Shown here in pieces: positions 1,690 through 31,744 of a DNA stretch of 32,000 nucleotides. Source of the DNA: an uncultured archaeon (GTDB lineage Archaea > Asgardarchaeota > Thorarchaeia > Thorarchaeales > CAZPUN01). The notes below the pieces were generated by a model. That model was not told the DNA's origin. It was given only the letters and a program-made list of their open reading frames with translations, and made no database searches. The position numbers were made by a program, and so were the translations under genes. The stretch lies in contig CAZPUN010000039.1 in NCBI GenBank assembly GCA_964589775.1, forward strand, positions 30,001 to 62,000, read 5' to 3'. Position 1 is the first letter of the stretch, and every line of letters begins with the position of its first letter.

Positions 1690-2880
1690 TTGGATCCTAT
1701 TTTACTCTGGGCCATCATTTTTATCTCTGTTGCAGTAATGCTGTACGTATCTCGAAAGAATATTTGGATTGCACTTTTTACGGGCGGTCTAATCTTGTTA
1801 ATTCCCGTAATTTTAGAAACACCGGCTGAAATCCCAAATATCATTTATAAGACTTTTCTGGATGCTTATATTTTTATTTTAGCAATTGCAGTTGGTCTAA
1901 TTGCGCTCATAGGAGGCTTACTTGAAATTGGAGGGCAGATGTCTCAGCTTGTCGATAATTTACCATTACGTAGAAGAACCACGTTGGCTTTATCACCGGC
2001 AATGATCGGAATGCTCCCGATGCCGGGTGGTGCTTTGTTATCTGCACCGCTTGTAGATAAGTTAGTTGAACCTCATGATCCTGAAGCTGCTTCCGCATTA
2101 AATGTATGGTTTAGGCATGTCTTATTCTTGATTTATCCACTGGGAACAGCATTATTGATCTCTGCAGCTGCTGCTTCTTTAGATGTATACGCAATTCTTG
2201 TATACATGTTTCCATTCTTCATATTTTCAATTATAATTGGATATTTCTTCCTGCTGAGAAAATTCAACAACGATAAGCCAAACGGGCATGGATACGATAA
2301 GAAAGCCTTACTAATGCCCGTAATTGCCCTTGCCATTGCACCCATATTAGATTTTAGTTTGAAAAGAGTCGTACCGATCGCATCTCTTGCAACACTAATT
2401 GGCGTAATTGTTAGTCTTGGTTTTTCACTCTATTTAATTAAAATGGATCGAACGATCTTTCGCAAAGCCGTAAATAAAATGAAACCCTGGGACTTTTCCC
2501 TCATCATATTTGGAATGATGTTCTACATGTATGCATTTATAGCATCCGGGGCATCCTCAGCAATCGCCTCAATGAGCCTACCACCACCTTTACTTATTTC
2601 CATACTGGCATTTATATTGGGATTTATAACCGGAAGAATCCAATCGCCAATGCTAATTCTAATTCCAATCTTTCTTGCACAATACGGTTCAATGACCCCA
2701 TTCTCTTTTGCCGTGGCATTCATAAGCGTTTTTACAGGTTATGTAATTTCACCAATTCATCCATGTGTGAGCGTCACAGCACGATATTTCAACGTATCAA
2801 TAAAGAGTATATTATCAGGCATGCTCAAACCAGCAATCTTATTATTCTTATCAGCATTCATAGCGTCTTTCTTCATTTAA
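1690..2880 (+). CDS. DUF401-family multi-pass membrane protein (IT-superfamily-like transporter)
   Basis: About 11-12 TM segments. Motifs GMLPMPGGALLSAP, NVWFRH and SPIHPC are characteristic of DUF401. TTG start after GAGGTG. Confidence 0.85.
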   Translation: MDPILLWAIIFISVAVMLYVSRKNIWIALFTGGLILLIPVILETPAEIPNIIYKTFLDAYIFILAIAVGLIALIGGLLEIGGQMSQLVDNLPLRRRTTLALSPAMIGMLPMPGGALLSAPLVDKLVEPHDPEAASALNVWFRHVLFLIYPLGTALLISAAAASLDVYAILVYMFPFFIFSIIIGYFFLLRKFNNDKPNGHGYDKKALLMPVIALAIAPILDFSLKRVVPIASLATLIGVIVSLGFSLYLIKMDRTIFRKAVNKMKPWDFSLIIFGMMFYMYAFIASGASSAIASMSLPPPLLISILAFILGFITGRIQSPMLILIPIFLAQYGSMTPFSFAVAFISVFTGYVISPIHPCVSVTARYFNVSIKSILSGMLKPAILLFLSAFIASFFI

Positions 2881-3056
2881 GTCCCTTTTTCTTATTTTTG
2901 AATCTACAATTCGATAAATAATTGGCATAAACCTTTTTTCAACAATTTAACCTCTCACAATATAAACTAAAAATCGATTAAAAAATAAAATCAAAATTAA
3001 ACCTAATCTCAACTAAAACATAATATTAAAAAATAAATTGAAATTTCAAGGGGCCT

Positions 3057-3419: not shown

Positions 3420-4799
3420 TCATAAAATATCATGCAGAAATTTTTTGAAACGCCCAGTTGGTTTATGCATATTTTTCTTAGCCTTGGAACGTGCGGTACT
3501 AACAATTTTCAAAATCTCTTTGTGCTCCTTTTTTAGTAATCTAATGTGTTTTTTGAAAAGGGCTTCATAAACCTCTCGGGATTGATCTTTTAAATCATAC
3601 AAATACTCTACGATACCTTTGGCAAAATCAATAGTAGCAACCAAAGGTGCAAGAACAGCAACGAAGGGCGGTAGCGAAACAAATATGCTGGCACCGAGCA
3701 AACTTAAGCCATCAAAAGCCGAAATAGCAAGTCTACGCCTCATAGAAGGCGTCTCCAAACCATCAAAAATTCCGGATACAATCTCATCGATCTTATCAAT
3801 ATCAAGTTTGAGAAGCGCTTTATTTATTTTTTCGGGTTTGAAATCTTTCTGTAATTCGAGTATTTGCTCCGCTGTAAGACTCCGCACTGCATCTGAGATG
3901 TGTGCCCGCTCAACAAGTTTTAATTCCCTTTTCATAGACTTCAACTCTTCAAAATAAAATGAGTCGAACCCTTCAATATTCTCAGTCATAAGTGATGTTT
4001 CAATATATTCCAACCCATACAATACTCGCATATCGTCTGTAATTGGAGGAACCCCTAAAAGTGATGAGGCGACAATCCCGTCAATCGAATAAGGAGGTAA
4101 CTTCGTACCATAAGCAGTATTAAGTCCTTGCGTTATGATCGAATATATATTTGATTCCTTGAATTGCACGTATTTTTTCCCAACCTCTGGAAAATATTGA
4201 TGCCACAACGCTCTATGCGGTATGTAAACGACTAGCTCTTCTTCGATTAAATCCGATATTTTGTAGACATTCGAAACAAAATATTTGAGATTATTTATCA
4301 GTCCGTCTAATGCATCTCCACCTTTCTTCATAACGTTCATCAGATAGGCTATGTGATTTATCAACGCAATGTCTTGTAAATAAATCCGATCGTTTATTAG
4401 TAGTCCCGTCTTAACCCCAAGCATAAAGTCGTCGCTTAACCCAAAATGCAAACTATGACTGACTTCATGAGATATATTGCTCATGGTCTTCTCGTAATAG
4501 AGATTCAATCGCTCGATTACGTCTTTTAAATTTTGTATGGCTCCAGCATCCGTAGAAGGCTTTATCTCCATTAAAGATTCTAATATCAACAAATATTCTT
4601 TACCGATCATTCCCAAATAGAAATTTACCCCCATTATTTGGATATTCATTAAATTCAAAACATAGCAATCCGGACATATAGATATTTCATCAAGATTAAT
4701 AATCCCATATTTTCTAATATATCTTGCCGTCATAAATCTTCTATAAATATTTGATAGAATTGGAGCGAAATAATGTACATCTATCCATCTCGCTATCAT
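3420..4799 (-). CDS. Hypothetical protein with CxxC and HExxH motifs and a C-terminal hydrophobic hairpin plus basic tail
   Basis: 459-aa ORF containing CPDC, HEVSH and the hydrophobic segment LSLLGASIFVSLPPFVAVLAPLVA. Confidence 0.75.
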   Translation of the reverse strand: MIARWIDVHYFAPILSNIYRRFMTARYIRKYGIINLDEISICPDCYVLNLMNIQIMGVNFYLGMIGKEYLLILESLMEIKPSTDAGAIQNLKDVIERLNLYYEKTMSNISHEVSHSLHFGLSDDFMLGVKTGLLINDRIYLQDIALINHIAYLMNVMKKGGDALDGLINNLKYFVSNVYKISDLIEEELVVYIPHRALWHQYFPEVGKKYVQFKESNIYSIITQGLNTAYGTKLPPYSIDGIVASSLLGVPPITDDMRVLYGLEYIETSLMTENIEGFDSFYFEELKSMKRELKLVERAHISDAVRSLTAEQILELQKDFKPEKINKALLKLDIDKIDEIVSGIFDGLETPSMRRRLAISAFDGLSLLGASIFVSLPPFVAVLAPLVATIDFAKGIVEYLYDLKDQSREVYEALFKKHIRLLKKEHKEILKIVSTARSKAKKNMHKPTGRFKKFLHDIL

Positions 4800-19966: not shown

Positions 19967-20114
19967 TTTTAATCTCTCCGAGACTTTTTTTTCATAAAAA
20001 AAATTTGTTTTTTATACATTTAACTCTATCTGAGAGACCAATACAGATAATAAAAATGAAATGACAATCACATAAATGTTTCAATATACCGAACATAATA
20101 TAATAAAAAATTTT

Positions 20115-20154
20115 GGCGATTCATCACCGCTTTCTAAAGCGATGATTTCTCGCA
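20115..20154 (-). repeat. Palindromic repeat copy 1 (IS200/IS605 left-end-like hairpin)
   Basis: GGCGATTCATCACCGCTTTCTAAAGCGATGATTTCTCGCA. Near-identical to copies at 22159-22200 and 31703-31744; lies 14 bp past the stop of the minus-strand gene at 20168. Confidence 0.85.
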
Positions 20155-20167
20155 TCTCATTTATAAA

Positions 20168-21172: not shown

Positions 21173-21991
21173 TTGGAACAATTATCTATTGACTTATTAA
21201 ATACATCTGCGAAATCGGGCGAAAGTATAGAGGGTAAAATAATATTATCCAAACTTCCAACAAAAGTAGATGTGATCTCCATAGAATTAAGAAGAAAAAT
21301 CTTGGGAACTATCAAAATCCCAAGAAAGCTCATGCCCGATATTCGAAAAGATTTTGAATTATATAGCACATCAAGTGGAACATACATTTTAACCAATAAT
21401 TCGAAAGATGGCGAATTCAACTTTTCAATTAAAGTTCCAGAAAGCGCAATATCATCTTTTAATTCTCGATATTTATCTATATCCTATGATATCTTTGCAA
21501 AATTAACTTCTGAAGAGAGTTTAGACACATACTATGTCTCGATTCCAATAGCAATTATAGGAAAAAATAAACAACCAAAGATCAATACTGAAAAATCAAT
21601 TTATACAATGTCCGGTAAAGATGAACTATTAGACATAAATTTAAGAAACATTTCCATAAAGAGAGGAAAACCAATACATATCGAATATCGCATAATTGAT
21701 AATTCGGACTTATTTTCCATAGTTGTTCGCCTTAATAATAGAATACGAATAAAGATCGATCCAGATATAGAAGAACCAATGTGGTATGAATCAACAATAT
21801 TAGAGGAATCAAAATATTATAAGGGAAACAAAATCCCAGATGTAGATGAATTATCGATAATAATACCGCAACTATCACCCCCAACAATTTCAAATCCAAT
21901 GTTCGATATAGAGTGGGAACTACAAATCGAATATGTAATGGATTGGGGTAATTCAGTCTCAATGTCTTTACCAATACATATTGAGCCATGA
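21173..21991 (+). CDS. Arrestin-fold protein (tandem arrestin-like lobes)
   Basis: GESIEGKI, FNFSIKVPESAISSFNSRYLSISYDI, IPQLSPPTISNPMFDIEWELQI. TTG start after GAGGT. The TGA stop is supplied by the adjacent mobile element. Confidence 0.75.
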   Translation: MEQLSIDLLNTSAKSGESIEGKIILSKLPTKVDVISIELRRKILGTIKIPRKLMPDIRKDFELYSTSSGTYILTNNSKDGEFNFSIKVPESAISSFNSRYLSISYDIFAKLTSEESLDTYYVSIPIAIIGKNKQPKINTEKSIYTMSGKDELLDINLRNISIKRGKPIHIEYRIIDNSDLFSIVVRLNNRIRIKIDPDIEEPMWYESTILEESKYYKGNKIPDVDELSIIIPQLSPPTISNPMFDIEWELQIEYVMDWGNSVSMSLPIHIEP

Positions 21992-22112
21992 CATACTCGC
22001 CACATTGAATTACAAGAGTTCTACGCATAGGCTATCCAGCGGTAGCCATTTCACGCATATACTCGCCATGTCTCGACAAGGGAGCTTTGATTATCGCTCC
22101 AGCCCCCTCTTA
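21968..22112 (-). ncRNA. Putative omegaRNA/reRNA: scaffold about 22112-21988 plus flank-derived guide (about 21987-21968, GGCUCAAUAUGUAUUGGUAA)
   Basis: 59/120 G+C (49%) over 21991-22110, against AT-rich intergenic DNA elsewhere. Hairpins GGAGC/GCUCC and GGCUA/UAGCC, a G-U-rich stem UAUGCGUG/UAUGCGUA, and UGAA able to pair with the RE-loop UUCA. Confidence 0.6.
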
Positions 22113-22207
22113 GTATGTTTAGTTCCATTAAGATATGGATAATCATTAATGAACTATTCTGCGATTCATCACCGCTTTGAAAAACGATGCTTTCTCGCAG
22201 AGCGTTT
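21988..22207 (-). mobile_element. 220-bp non-autonomous IS200/IS605-family (TnpB-associated) miniature element
   Basis: Minus-strand order: target TTTAC (22212-22208), AAA, LE hairpin (22200-22159), tnpB-tail-like LNILRGG (22122-22102), structured GC-rich segment, RE ending GAGTATGTCAT (21988). No TIRs or TSD. Excision joins GAG CC|G TAA and restores the host gene end. Confidence 0.78.
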
Positions 22208-22328
22208 GTAAATCCAAACCATTTCAAGAATTGAATCGCCTATTAATATAAAAAAAGGGGAAAAGTCTACAAATTTACGTTGCCTTTAGGTTATTCTGCA
22301 TTCTCAAATTGAACAATTTTTCATCAGA

Positions 22329-23903
22329 TTATTCTTCGCTTTCCATCATTTTTTCTGCTTCTTCAACAATTTTTCGTGCTCTCTGAAGACTGATTTTTAG
22401 ATGAAACGCTAATTCTTCAGGATCTGCTAATGATACTGAGCGTATGGTCGAATAGCCTAATCGTTTCATTCGTTCAGCTGTCACTTTGCCAACACCTTTT
22501 ATTTTTGTTACAGATTGTTCGCCGATTGGAATGTCTTTTTTCTTAGTAGTACTTTTTGTTTTTACAGGTCCTGTTTTTGCTGCTTGACGTTTTACTGGCT
22601 TTGAAGACTCTTCAGATAAATACACATCCAGTTCGCGGTCTAGTTCTTCTGAACTACCAATCACAATTTCATCGAGTGATTTATTTTGTATAATATCATC
22701 TACTGCTGCTTGGACAGCTCCTTGATCAATTGAAATTTCCAATTTTTCGATTTCAACTTCATTTTCTAATACTTCAGGAGCTTGGGCAAGAGGATAGAAC
22801 GCAATTAGTGCAAAAGTTATTGCGAGTGATAGACTAAAATTCCCAAGAGTTAATGGAAAGACAAATTCATTCACATGTACAAACATTGCCCCACCAATGA
22901 GTAGGATCATATAAGTCCATGCATAAAATATCCGTCGTGCTTTGTTTTGATACGAGCCGATTTCACCCCAAATAAGAAACATACCTATACCTACAATATA
23001 ACCGAAAACAAAATCTTGGATTATACTGAGTGCAGAGACCAATTCGGGCTGTCCTGAAAAGCTTGGAGTATAAATTGAAAGACCGGCTAAGAGTAATACA
23101 CCAATTGTAGCAGTCTGTCGTCTGCCTAAACGATCTGACAACATTCCGGAGATTAAAGCACTAATTGCAATAACAACTGATCCAATATGAGGCATATCAC
23201 CAAGAGGCACAAAACCATGATTGGATAATGCAACCATTATTTTGAGATTATGAGCATGTATATACCAAGTTATTAATGAGAGCCCGATAAAGAACCAGGA
23301 TATCGCATAACGACGTGGAGTCCCATGTACTGTATAATTATGACGCTCAAAATTCCATGGTTTAATAAGAATTGAAAAACCTAAAACGCCAAGAATTGTG
23401 ATATCCAGAATTGAGATACCATCAACAACAAATGGAACACCATTAACTTTTAGAGCAGAAAGAATTGTAACTCCAATCATAGTAATAAAAATAAACAGTC
23501 CGGATAACTTTCCTCGATCCTCACAAGGGACCAATCGCGCAACATTTTCAACCAAAGCTAATGTCGCTGCAAGTATCAGATAAGCTCCTATAGTATACAA
23601 AATAGTGTACCAAATATTAATGTCAATAAATATGCCGACTTTCGTAATTACAAGATCTAGCAAAATAGGAAAAGATACCCCAATATACATCAAGTATGTT
23701 GCCAATCGGTCGTTTAATTTTACATATGATGTGATAAACATTCCTAGAACTGCTGCTGCGGTTATAATTAGAGGAATTACATTGATAGAGCCCAATGCAT
23801 AAGTTCCAAGATATATATCAAATAATCCATTAATTAGCCAAACTAAAGGTCCTGAAAAAGCTAAAGCAAATATTGTAGTCTCTAATGTAAGTTTGTTATA
23901 CAA
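22329..23903 (-). CDS. MFS-like 12-TM membrane protein fused to a C-terminal helix-hairpin-helix (RadA-N/HHH_5-like) domain
   Basis: About 12 TM segments, MFS motif A-like GMLSDRLGRR, C-terminal KIKGVGKVTAERMKRLGYSTIRSVSLADPEELA. Start is TTG 23903 after GGTGAGG, or GTG 23912. Confidence 0.8.
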   Translation of the reverse strand: MYNKLTLETTIFALAFSGPLVWLINGLFDIYLGTYALGSINVIPLIITAAAVLGMFITSYVKLNDRLATYLMYIGVSFPILLDLVITKVGIFIDINIWYTILYTIGAYLILAATLALVENVARLVPCEDRGKLSGLFIFITMIGVTILSALKVNGVPFVVDGISILDITILGVLGFSILIKPWNFERHNYTVHGTPRRYAISWFFIGLSLITWYIHAHNLKIMVALSNHGFVPLGDMPHIGSVVIAISALISGMLSDRLGRRQTATIGVLLLAGLSIYTPSFSGQPELVSALSIIQDFVFGYIVGIGMFLIWGEIGSYQNKARRIFYAWTYMILLIGGAMFVHVNEFVFPLTLGNFSLSLAITFALIAFYPLAQAPEVLENEVEIEKLEISIDQGAVQAAVDDIIQNKSLDEIVIGSSEELDRELDVYLSEESSKPVKRQAAKTGPVKTKSTTKKKDIPIGEQSVTKIKGVGKVTAERMKRLGYSTIRSVSLADPEELAFHLKISLQRARKIVEEAEKMMESEE

Positions 23904-24052
23904 ATTCCTCACCGAAATATTTGATGCGTGCTCAATAAATGATAGGTGGACCTTTCTTTTAAATTTTTTATAAGATTCTGAAAGGAATAATTAATTGTGC
24001 GCACATTTAAAAATTCGACAAACCTTTAGAGCTATGGTTTATAGAAAAAAAT

Positions 24053-31398: not shown

Positions 31399-31702
31399 AT
31401 AAATCACCTATCCATTCAATTATTAAATTTTGTCAAATCATTCCACATATATTACTGCAAATAAAAAATCGATTTTCCTTATATGTGTTATTGCTTAACT
31501 ATAAAAATATAATTGTTTTTGAAAAAGAAAAAACACGAATTATACTTCATAACACACTATATAGATCCTCTATTGAGAGAAAACTCTTTGTGTATATAAT
31601 TGTGCCAAATGGTTTTTTATTTATTCAAATGATATTTTTGAATACTAAATCCTCAAATCATAATCATTTTCAATTCTACAATTAGTTCATATTAAAAAAA
31701 TT

Positions 31703-31744
31703 AGGCGAATCATCACCGCTTTCTAAAGCGATGAGGACGCGCCT
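31703..31744 (-). repeat. Palindromic repeat copy 3 (IS200/IS605 left-end-like hairpin)
   Basis: AGGCGAATCATCACCGCTTTCTAAAGCGATGAGGACGCGCCT. The 25-nt core TCATCACCGCTTTCTAAAGCGATGA is identical to copy 1; outer arms AGGCG/CGCCT. Confidence 0.85.

Follow-up and report, generated by a model that had tools for sequence, protein, structure and literature searches.

A probable fossil element of the IS605 group in an uncultured archaeon retains both transposon ends and an omegaRNA-like scaffold

We analysed a 32,000-nucleotide stretch of DNA from an uncultured archaeon of the order Thorarchaeales (GenBank assembly GCA_964589775.1, contig CAZPUN010000039.1, positions 30,001 to 62,000; hereafter the window), in which an initial annotation had described a mini-element of 220 bp. 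Positions 21988-22207, read on the minus strand, very probably hold a non-autonomous, internally deleted derivative of a transposon of the IS605 group (Y1 tnpA plus tnpB), that is, one of the protein-free IS200/IS605 derivatives called PATEs, which is now a fossil. Of its parent, the element retains the left end (about 85 nt, adjoining a TTAC tetranucleotide) and the last ~135 nt. A PATE that carries an omegaRNA is an already published kind of element and does not constitute a new kind of system. Together, the locus and its relatives trace an RNA-guided transposon of an uncultured archaeal lineage through its life cycle, from an intact element in a sister species, through a pseudogene intermediate (loci L086 and L119), to ~47 derivatives that decay in the genome studied here following the loss of the helper genes. 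Unless stated otherwise, coordinates without a prefix refer to the window and features are given on the minus strand.

Ends of the element

The minus-strand series listed in the initial annotation (TTTAC, a hairpin, the reading LNILRGGW, a folded segment richer in GC, GAAC, a TTCA hairpin and the terminus) was recovered in full at the same positions. The nhmmer profile of the repeat family places the window copy at 22211-21990 (E 9.6e-54), and the family alignment together with an orthologous empty site sets its limits at 21988 and 22207 (220 bp). TTAC at 22208-22211 lies in the flank, outside the element; cleavage at the left end presumably took place there, and it is also the presumed transposon-associated motif (TAM) of TnpB. 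It is preceded by T at 22212, so that the minus strand reads TTTAC from 22212 to 22208. A target and TAM of TTTAC or TTTAY had been predicted. The TTAC core of that prediction stood, as in 20 of 25 left ends the family homology opens immediately 3' of TTAC, but its first T fell away, since the base 5' of TTAC is A or T across the family.

From TTAC to the foot of the left hairpin there are 18 nt, the last four of which, read directly as AAAG (22190-22193), lie immediately 5' of the hairpin foot and are the presumed left guide (GL). The left subterminal hairpin (22170-22189) has 9-nt arms (22189-22181 and 22178-22170) that include two G-T pairs, and sits inside an outer stem formed by 22200-22194 and 22164-22159. 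Pairing in alignment A2 is 89% for the left-end hairpin (helix 2) and 82% for its enclosing stem (helix 1). At the other end, GAAC (22018-22021), likewise read directly, is kept in most family copies and relatives and is the presumed right guide (GR), 5' of the foot of the right subterminal hairpin (21998-22017, TTCA loop). Ten nucleotides lead from that hairpin foot to the right terminus (21988-21997), which reads TCAT (21991-21988) in the window copy and TCAG in the family consensus, as it does in the relatives from other records whose right end could be read. As DNA, the right hairpin of the window copy has decayed to 1 Watson-Crick pair, 5 G-T pairs and 2 mismatches among 8 pairs, and the consensus helix has compensatory changes in 7 of its 8 pairs. 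Imperfect subterminal hairpins occur at both ends with 84-89% pairing across the family, again with compensatory changes, and the left and right ends are not inverted repeats of one another, as had been anticipated for an IS200/IS605 element.

Between the left end and the scaffold described below, the minimum-free-energy fold contains an internal hairpin (22122-22154; helix 3 of A2), which is paired in only 62% of that alignment and thus has weak comparative support. The minus strand as a whole folds at -73.1 kcal/mol with a z score of -3.9 (0 of 200 shuffles as good), compared with a z score of -0.4 for the plus strand. Coding capacity is limited to chance open reading frames (ORFs) of 53-58 aa that overlap the element, together with TnpB codons that survive as frame-broken relics.

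Intact and decaying relatives with the same ends

Relatives were found with a degenerate 22-mer derived from the block of highest conservation; public genomes and metagenomes were scanned for it, and the matches were filtered with the family profile. The pattern scan of genome contigs gave approximately the number of matches expected by chance, L086 being the sole real one. L086 and L119 form an orthologous locus pair in which TTAC is followed by the family left end, a broken tnpB and the family right end. The 274-aa ORF P0001 matches HTH_OrfB_IS605 above the Pfam cut-off and OrfB_IS605 slightly below it; past a frameshift, the next frame encodes a Zn ribbon and RuvC-III motif (..DRDLNASINILNRG..) that runs directly into the conserved scaffold.

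A protein search with P0001 recovered intact TnpBs of 400-410 aa at 60-88% identity, whose contigs carry the same ends. The most complete description comes from L151 (NCBI GCA_053994715.1), where TTAT is followed by a left end (2515-2600), tnpA (Y1, 139 aa), tnpB (402 aa) and a right end that reaches TCAG at 4253; the family profile matches its right end at E 1e-37 and its left end at E 1e-11. The tnpB stop lies at 4209, 44 nt from the element boundary. Two elements with tnpA and tnpB (L151 and L157) and one with tnpB only (L153) match the family at both ends, and L155, L156, L158, L160 and L163 match at the right end; across relatives, E-values range from 1e-13 to 1e-37 for right ends and from 1e-11 to 1e-14 for left ends. 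Elements bearing tnpA and tnpB with these very ends therefore do exist, and the proposal of an internally deleted IS200/IS605 element that had kept its left end, right end and guide scaffold is well founded.

The reading frame of tnpB (Zn ribbon, RuvC-III ..DRDLNASINIL..) enters the scaffold in both L119 and L151, and DNA alignment to the tnpB 3' ends of these two loci identifies ELNILRGGW at 22099-22125 as a relic of the C-terminal RuvC-III tail, aligned with SINILNRGL in the ..NASINILNRG.. tail of intact TnpBs. The annotated LNIL reading was hence correctly taken for a TnpB tail. A second relic, of the last TnpB codons, lies at 22035-22070; its DNA is homologous to L151 4170-4209, and tblastn aligns residues 391-402 of the TnpB P0004 with 22070-22035 at 75% identity over 12 aa, a match that is weak alone (E 6.8). 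Similar tail relics covering P0004 residues 357-402 were found in other copies in this genome (C23, E 2.5e-5; C46, E 1e-3).

The decay stage represented by L086 and L119 can be described separately. Each locus (L086 4003-5176; L119 3160-4389) holds a 1.2-kb element with both ends, in another metagenome-assembled genome (MAG), at an intermediate stage of decay: tnpB has lost its RuvC-II region and has a frameshift before the Zn ribbon, and in L119 it is also split into two ORFs.

Orthologous empty sites

The genes that flank L151 correspond to C21:62650-64827 of the genome studied here, with 94.6% identity for inositol-1-phosphate synthase and 75.7% for a radical-SAM gene, and the L151 source is a sister species of this genome. 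The L151 insertion site is empty here (C21:63709-63804), the two flanking genes being 96 bp apart, and 19 bases of the right flank, beginning immediately after TCAG, are identical to this genome, which fixes the right terminus and shows the absence of a duplication.

The reciprocal situation is found at the window locus. The order GDE, SfsA, HHH protein, arrestin-like ORF, 273-aa gene and SIS is common to the window and the syntenic loci L166 and L167, with the HHH protein 74% and the arrestin-like ORF 72% identical between the window and its syntenic relative. In L166 and L167 the locus is uninterrupted, with 42 bp and no element between two convergent genes; L168 is cut short at this locus, and in L169, from a more distant relative, the locus is empty too. 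L166 reads TTAG followed by the common flank, compared with TTAC, 220 bp and the same flank in the window. Thus the window copy was inserted 3' of TTAC without target duplication, and the two orthologous empty sites fix the element boundaries and confirm the annotated expectation of insertion without duplication. The 220 bp are not a segment common to all relatives, given the empty loci L166, L167 and L169 and the presence of 47 family loci in this genome.

These sites also bear on the reading of the repeats as an ordinary structured non-coding RNA gene family, or as a DDE-type miniature inverted-repeat transposable element, unrelated to IS200/IS605. Such a reading would suit the strong fold and the lack of an encoded protein, but the repeats show neither terminal inverted repeats nor a target duplication, an insertion is evident at the empty site, both ends are homologous to those of tnpA-tnpB elements, and Rfam and tRNA scans are blank (the tRNA scan of the element gave nothing relevant). 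The homologous ends and the two empty sites together refute it, and we regard it as scarcely credible.

A covarying scaffold at the tnpB 3' end

The right part of the element (21988-22123) forms a scaffold domain that matches covariance model R1 with 121 bits and is built from a closing helix formed by 22118-22112 and 21997-21991, from three internal helices, of which one has two parts, and from the right-end hairpin. The closing helix pairs the TnpB-tail segment with the last bases before TCAG. This structure of 39 pairs was drawn by hand and then tested; RNAalifold, applied to a MAFFT alignment of all 33 copies, gave 4 pairs only. Two alignments were used for testing: A3, made with MAFFT from the final 132 nt of 31 copies in this genome and of 11 in other records, and A4, fitted to R1, in which the scaffold occupies 134 positions. 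In A3, 79% of cells are paired, against 35-48% when partners are slid, with compensatory changes in 32 of 39 pairs and 110 double-change cells against 50 in shuffles; the corresponding values in A4 are 81%, 33-51%, 33 of 39, and 135 against 56. In both alignments, none of 500 shuffles reaches any of the five measures.

TnpB omegaRNAs are encoded over the tnpB 3' end up to the transposon boundary (PMC10055086). In L151 the R1 match (4122-4253) spans just this interval, from the tnpB 3' end to the element boundary, and the window copy aligns to R1 over its full length. This shared location leads us to read the scaffold as omegaRNA-like. The transcript of the element could have acted as an omegaRNA for TnpB provided in trans, the bases beyond the right end being the guide and TTAC the TAM. 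We also considered a T-tract terminator at a fixed distance past the right end, which would have implied a 16-nt guide, and rejected it as a feature of the family, since T runs stand at no constant distance and many copies lack them.

This comparison gives three products of practical use: R1, as a covariance model of the omegaRNA-like scaffold in one TnpB clade; TTAC, as the predicted TAM; and a set of natural scaffold variants that could help to minimise the guide RNA of this TnpB.

An old family in neutral decay

Within this genome (2.16 Mb in 64 contigs), searched with BLAST and with the nhmmer profile, 54 profile matches collapse to 47 loci, which occupy 9.5 kb or 0.44% of the genome. The covariance model of the 3' domain gives 40 full-length matches, among which the window copy ranks fifth (121 bits, E 2.6e-29). 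Copies fall into two size classes, ~196-224 bp and ~260-275 bp, the longer of which retains more of the parental tnpB 3' end. Their flanks are unrelated to each other, and family homology ends at TCA, mostly followed by G. In contigs from three metagenome runs, other copies diverge at 22211-22213, and none of the contigs from these runs bridges an empty site. Pairwise identity among copies averages 63% and reaches at most 88.5%, and the copies are thus old.

The initial annotation had further proposed that TnpA could mobilise the element and that the element could load a TnpB supplied in trans. The assembled genome offers no means of doing either. Six-frame searches with the Pfam models for Y1_Tnp, OrfB_IS605 and the TnpB Zn ribbon gave nothing above cut-off, tblastn with the TnpA and TnpB of the sister species returned only the tail relics within copies, and no other tnpA or tnpB fragment was found in the assembled genome, the neighbourhood of contig ends included. 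The copies themselves are deteriorating. In the R1-fitted alignment, the share of broken pair cells is 23.5% for copies in this genome and 6.4% for copies from other records, and intact copies linked to tnpB have 0-4 broken pairs of 39. Private substitutions in two subfamilies broke a pair 29 times and kept it 14 times (A-C 17 times, G-U 10 times) and are at least as frequent at paired as at unpaired sites. The broken pairs and the pattern of private substitutions indicate neutral decay after insertion rather than maintained RNAs. We therefore read the family in this genome as a fossil and not as an active parasite, and the window copy, though among the better preserved, is most likely an immobile fossil.

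Several points weigh against this interpretation. The MAG has 64 contigs and an estimated completeness of 96.75%, and a multi-copy or episomal tnpA or tnpB could be unassembled or unbinned. The window copy still forms 36 of its 39 scaffold pairs (26 Watson-Crick and 10 G-U, with 3 broken), and for this reason it cannot be called dead as an RNA. The scaffold is probably TnpB omegaRNA-like, but we infer its transcription and function from position, structure and homology only, and Rfam 15 gave no match at the gathering threshold or at E up to 10, although it may hold no model for this clade. Lastly, the element may end at TCA or at TCAT, which leaves an uncertainty of one base in its right boundary.

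Some of these points would fit a family that is still active, with TnpA and TnpB residing in the unassembled 3% of the genome, carried on an unbinned plasmid or virus, or acquired episodically from neighbours. The incompleteness of the MAG, the intact element in the sister species, and the preservation in the window copy of the scaffold pairs, the left end and TTAC all speak for such a scenario. We nevertheless consider it improbable, given that no two copies are more than 88.5% alike, and hence show no sign of recent bursts, that private substitutions freely break pairs, that the right hairpin of the window copy has, as DNA, only 1 Watson-Crick pair among its 8 pairs, and that no helper-gene fragment other than the tail relics was found in the assembly, the neighbourhood of contig ends included.

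Domestication of orphan scaffolds, in which the better-preserved copies would be transcribed and serve a host factor that has no part in transposition, as its regulatory or guide RNAs, might account for the strand-specific folding, the many G-U pairs and the good preservation of some copies, the window's among them, and also for the position of the window copy, which lies on the same strand as the gene at 22329-23912 and downstream of it. The G-U bias, however, is already present in relatives linked to TnpB and is thus inherited; private changes show no preference for keeping pairs, with paired sites changing at least as often as unpaired ones; and neither a TnpB-like nor a TldR-like protein was found in the genome. 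We consequently hold domestication to be very improbable, and retain the interpretation of the copies as fossils left to drift.

Comparison with known elements

Protein-free derivatives of IS200/IS605 elements were described as PATEs in Haloquadratum (PMC3119063), and Meers et al., working on Geobacillus stearothermophilus, noted that PATEs "often encode omegaRNAs" (PMC10055086). The elements studied here resemble PATEs in having no coding capacity, in combining the left and right ends of a tnpB-bearing parent, in their multiple copies and putatively omegaRNA-encoding right part, and in their presumed dependence on TnpA and TnpB in trans. They differ from known PATEs in that their genome retains no helper gene, in the measurable decay of the family, and in their host, an uncultured archaeon.

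A detailed comparison is possible with IS608 of Helicobacter pylori, a member of the IS605 group with tnpA and tnpB, which cleaves 3' of TTAC, 19 nt before the foot of its left hairpin, and on the right at TCAA, 10 nt past the foot of the right hairpin; a 4-nt guide located 5' of the respective foot recognises each site, and on the left this guide is AAAG (PMC3201880). The window element has the same TTAC target or left cleavage site and the same AAAG guide, with a left spacing of 18 rather than 19 nt and a right end that lies 10 nt past the hairpin foot in both; the lack of duplication and the top-strand specificity are likewise common to the two. The right terminus is TCAA in IS608 and TCAG here (TCAT in the window copy), where the right guide is read as GAAC. 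The ends show no similarity in sequence to those of IS608, although no comparison aimed at it was made. Among relatives, the guide varies with the target, AAAG accompanying TTAC (L119, L153 and L160) and AAAA accompanying TTAT (L151); this is a single event, and is as expected if the guide pairs with the target. Geometry and homology point to peel-and-paste of the IS608 type for this family, in which a single-strand reaction catalysed by TnpA supplied in trans would have moved the elements.

The scaffold can also be compared with the omegaRNAs (reRNAs) of ISDra2 and ISGst elements, which similarly extend over the tnpB 3' end to the transposon boundary and are structured and ~130 nt or more in length; as in those systems, the flank just beyond the right end would supply the guide, and the transposon target would double as TAM. 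In contrast to the ISDra2 and ISGst omegaRNAs, the putative scaffold here stands without its nuclease gene and is unmatched in Rfam.

Insertion on a stop codon

The initial TCA of the right terminus provides, on the plus strand, the TGA stop (21989-21991) of the convergent gene at 21173-21991. The window gene ends in PIHIEP followed by this stop, and its ortholog at the empty L166 site ends in PIHIDP followed by TAA, at the same residue. An earlier idea that the insertion had cost the convergent ORF ~8 codons was rejected because the L166 ortholog ends at this residue. On insertion, the copy landed 3' of a TTAC whose complementary strand carried the TAA stop of the convergent gene, and the stop codon now comes from the end of the element. 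The reverse complements of TTAC and TCAG are GTAA and CTGA, respectively, so that insertion on a TAA stop turns "..xyG TAA" into "..xyC TGA" and keeps protein length.

Of the 31 right ends in this genome, 4 show this in-frame arrangement (the window copy, C64:7715, C8:3677 and C17:53460), and so does L119/L086 (L119 3161-3163), which makes at least five insertions confirmed by reading frame; the coordinates of called genes suggest it at L160 2758-2760, L155 1348-1350 and L158 2741-2743 as well. At none of these 31 right ends does a long ORF run into the element in a different frame. We cannot tell whether the arrangement reflects selection on where insertions survive or is incidental to the sequences of the cleavage sites.

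A more speculative proposal joins two ideas, that the orphan scaffolds form a standing guide library and that the element ends are harmless on G-TAA stop codons; taken jointly, we regard these as a long shot. If the first held, the best-preserved scaffolds, the window's included, would still be transcribed and could be loaded by any compatible incoming TnpB, for example from the intact element of the sister lineage or from a virus, and the genome would amount to a standing library of ~40 guides against its own empty sites. If the second held, the reverse complement of TCAG would restore an in-frame TGA at the same codon position, and gene ends would be safe havens for insertion.

The convergent gene itself (21173-21991, plus strand) encodes a 272-aa ORF with a weak Arrestin_N match (E 4e-5, below cut-off). 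Judged by its syntenic L166 ortholog, which is 72% identical over the full length, this ORF is a real conserved gene.

Other searches and minor observations

The same-order genomes that were searched yielded no further members of the family. Searches with the element DNA gave no match in 60 genomes of the same order, R1 gave none in 86, though TnpB is present in 65 of them, and 30 TnpB loci from same-order relatives showed no similarity to the element. An intact IS605 element in genome G087 (L148/L150) was considered as the parent and rejected as belonging to a different family, its TnpB being 28% identical and its ends not shared. Just upstream of the left end of this unrelated tnpA-tnpB element, at L150 1960-2200, a short motif (..ATGTAAACA..) is repeated about a dozen times in close succession.

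The same insertion sequence clade, with TnpBs 60-88% identical and the same right end, was observed in MAGs labelled as Thermoplasmata (L086 in AUK260, P0017 and P0043), the housekeeping genes of which are ~37-48% identical to those of this genome. These occurrences point to either transfer between distant archaeal lineages in vent sediments or mis-binning.

Two partial copies accompany the element in the window, both on the minus strand: a solo left end of the same family at 20108-20165 (E 5e-12), which is missing from the syntenic spacer of L166, and a left end with part of the middle at 31644-31742 (E 1e-8). Elsewhere in this genome, the right-end hairpin block occurs in tandem at C21:44377-44486 and C64:26100-26225, the only two such loci seen, as a block of ~37 bp, a spacer of ~36 bp and a repeat of the block, the terminus of the first copy being degenerate. 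Mini-elements also form head-to-head inverted pairs on C21 (174603-174799, minus strand, and 175863-176137, plus strand) and on C46 (922-1172, minus strand, and 2641-2906, plus strand), each of which encloses 1.0-1.5 kb of other DNA.

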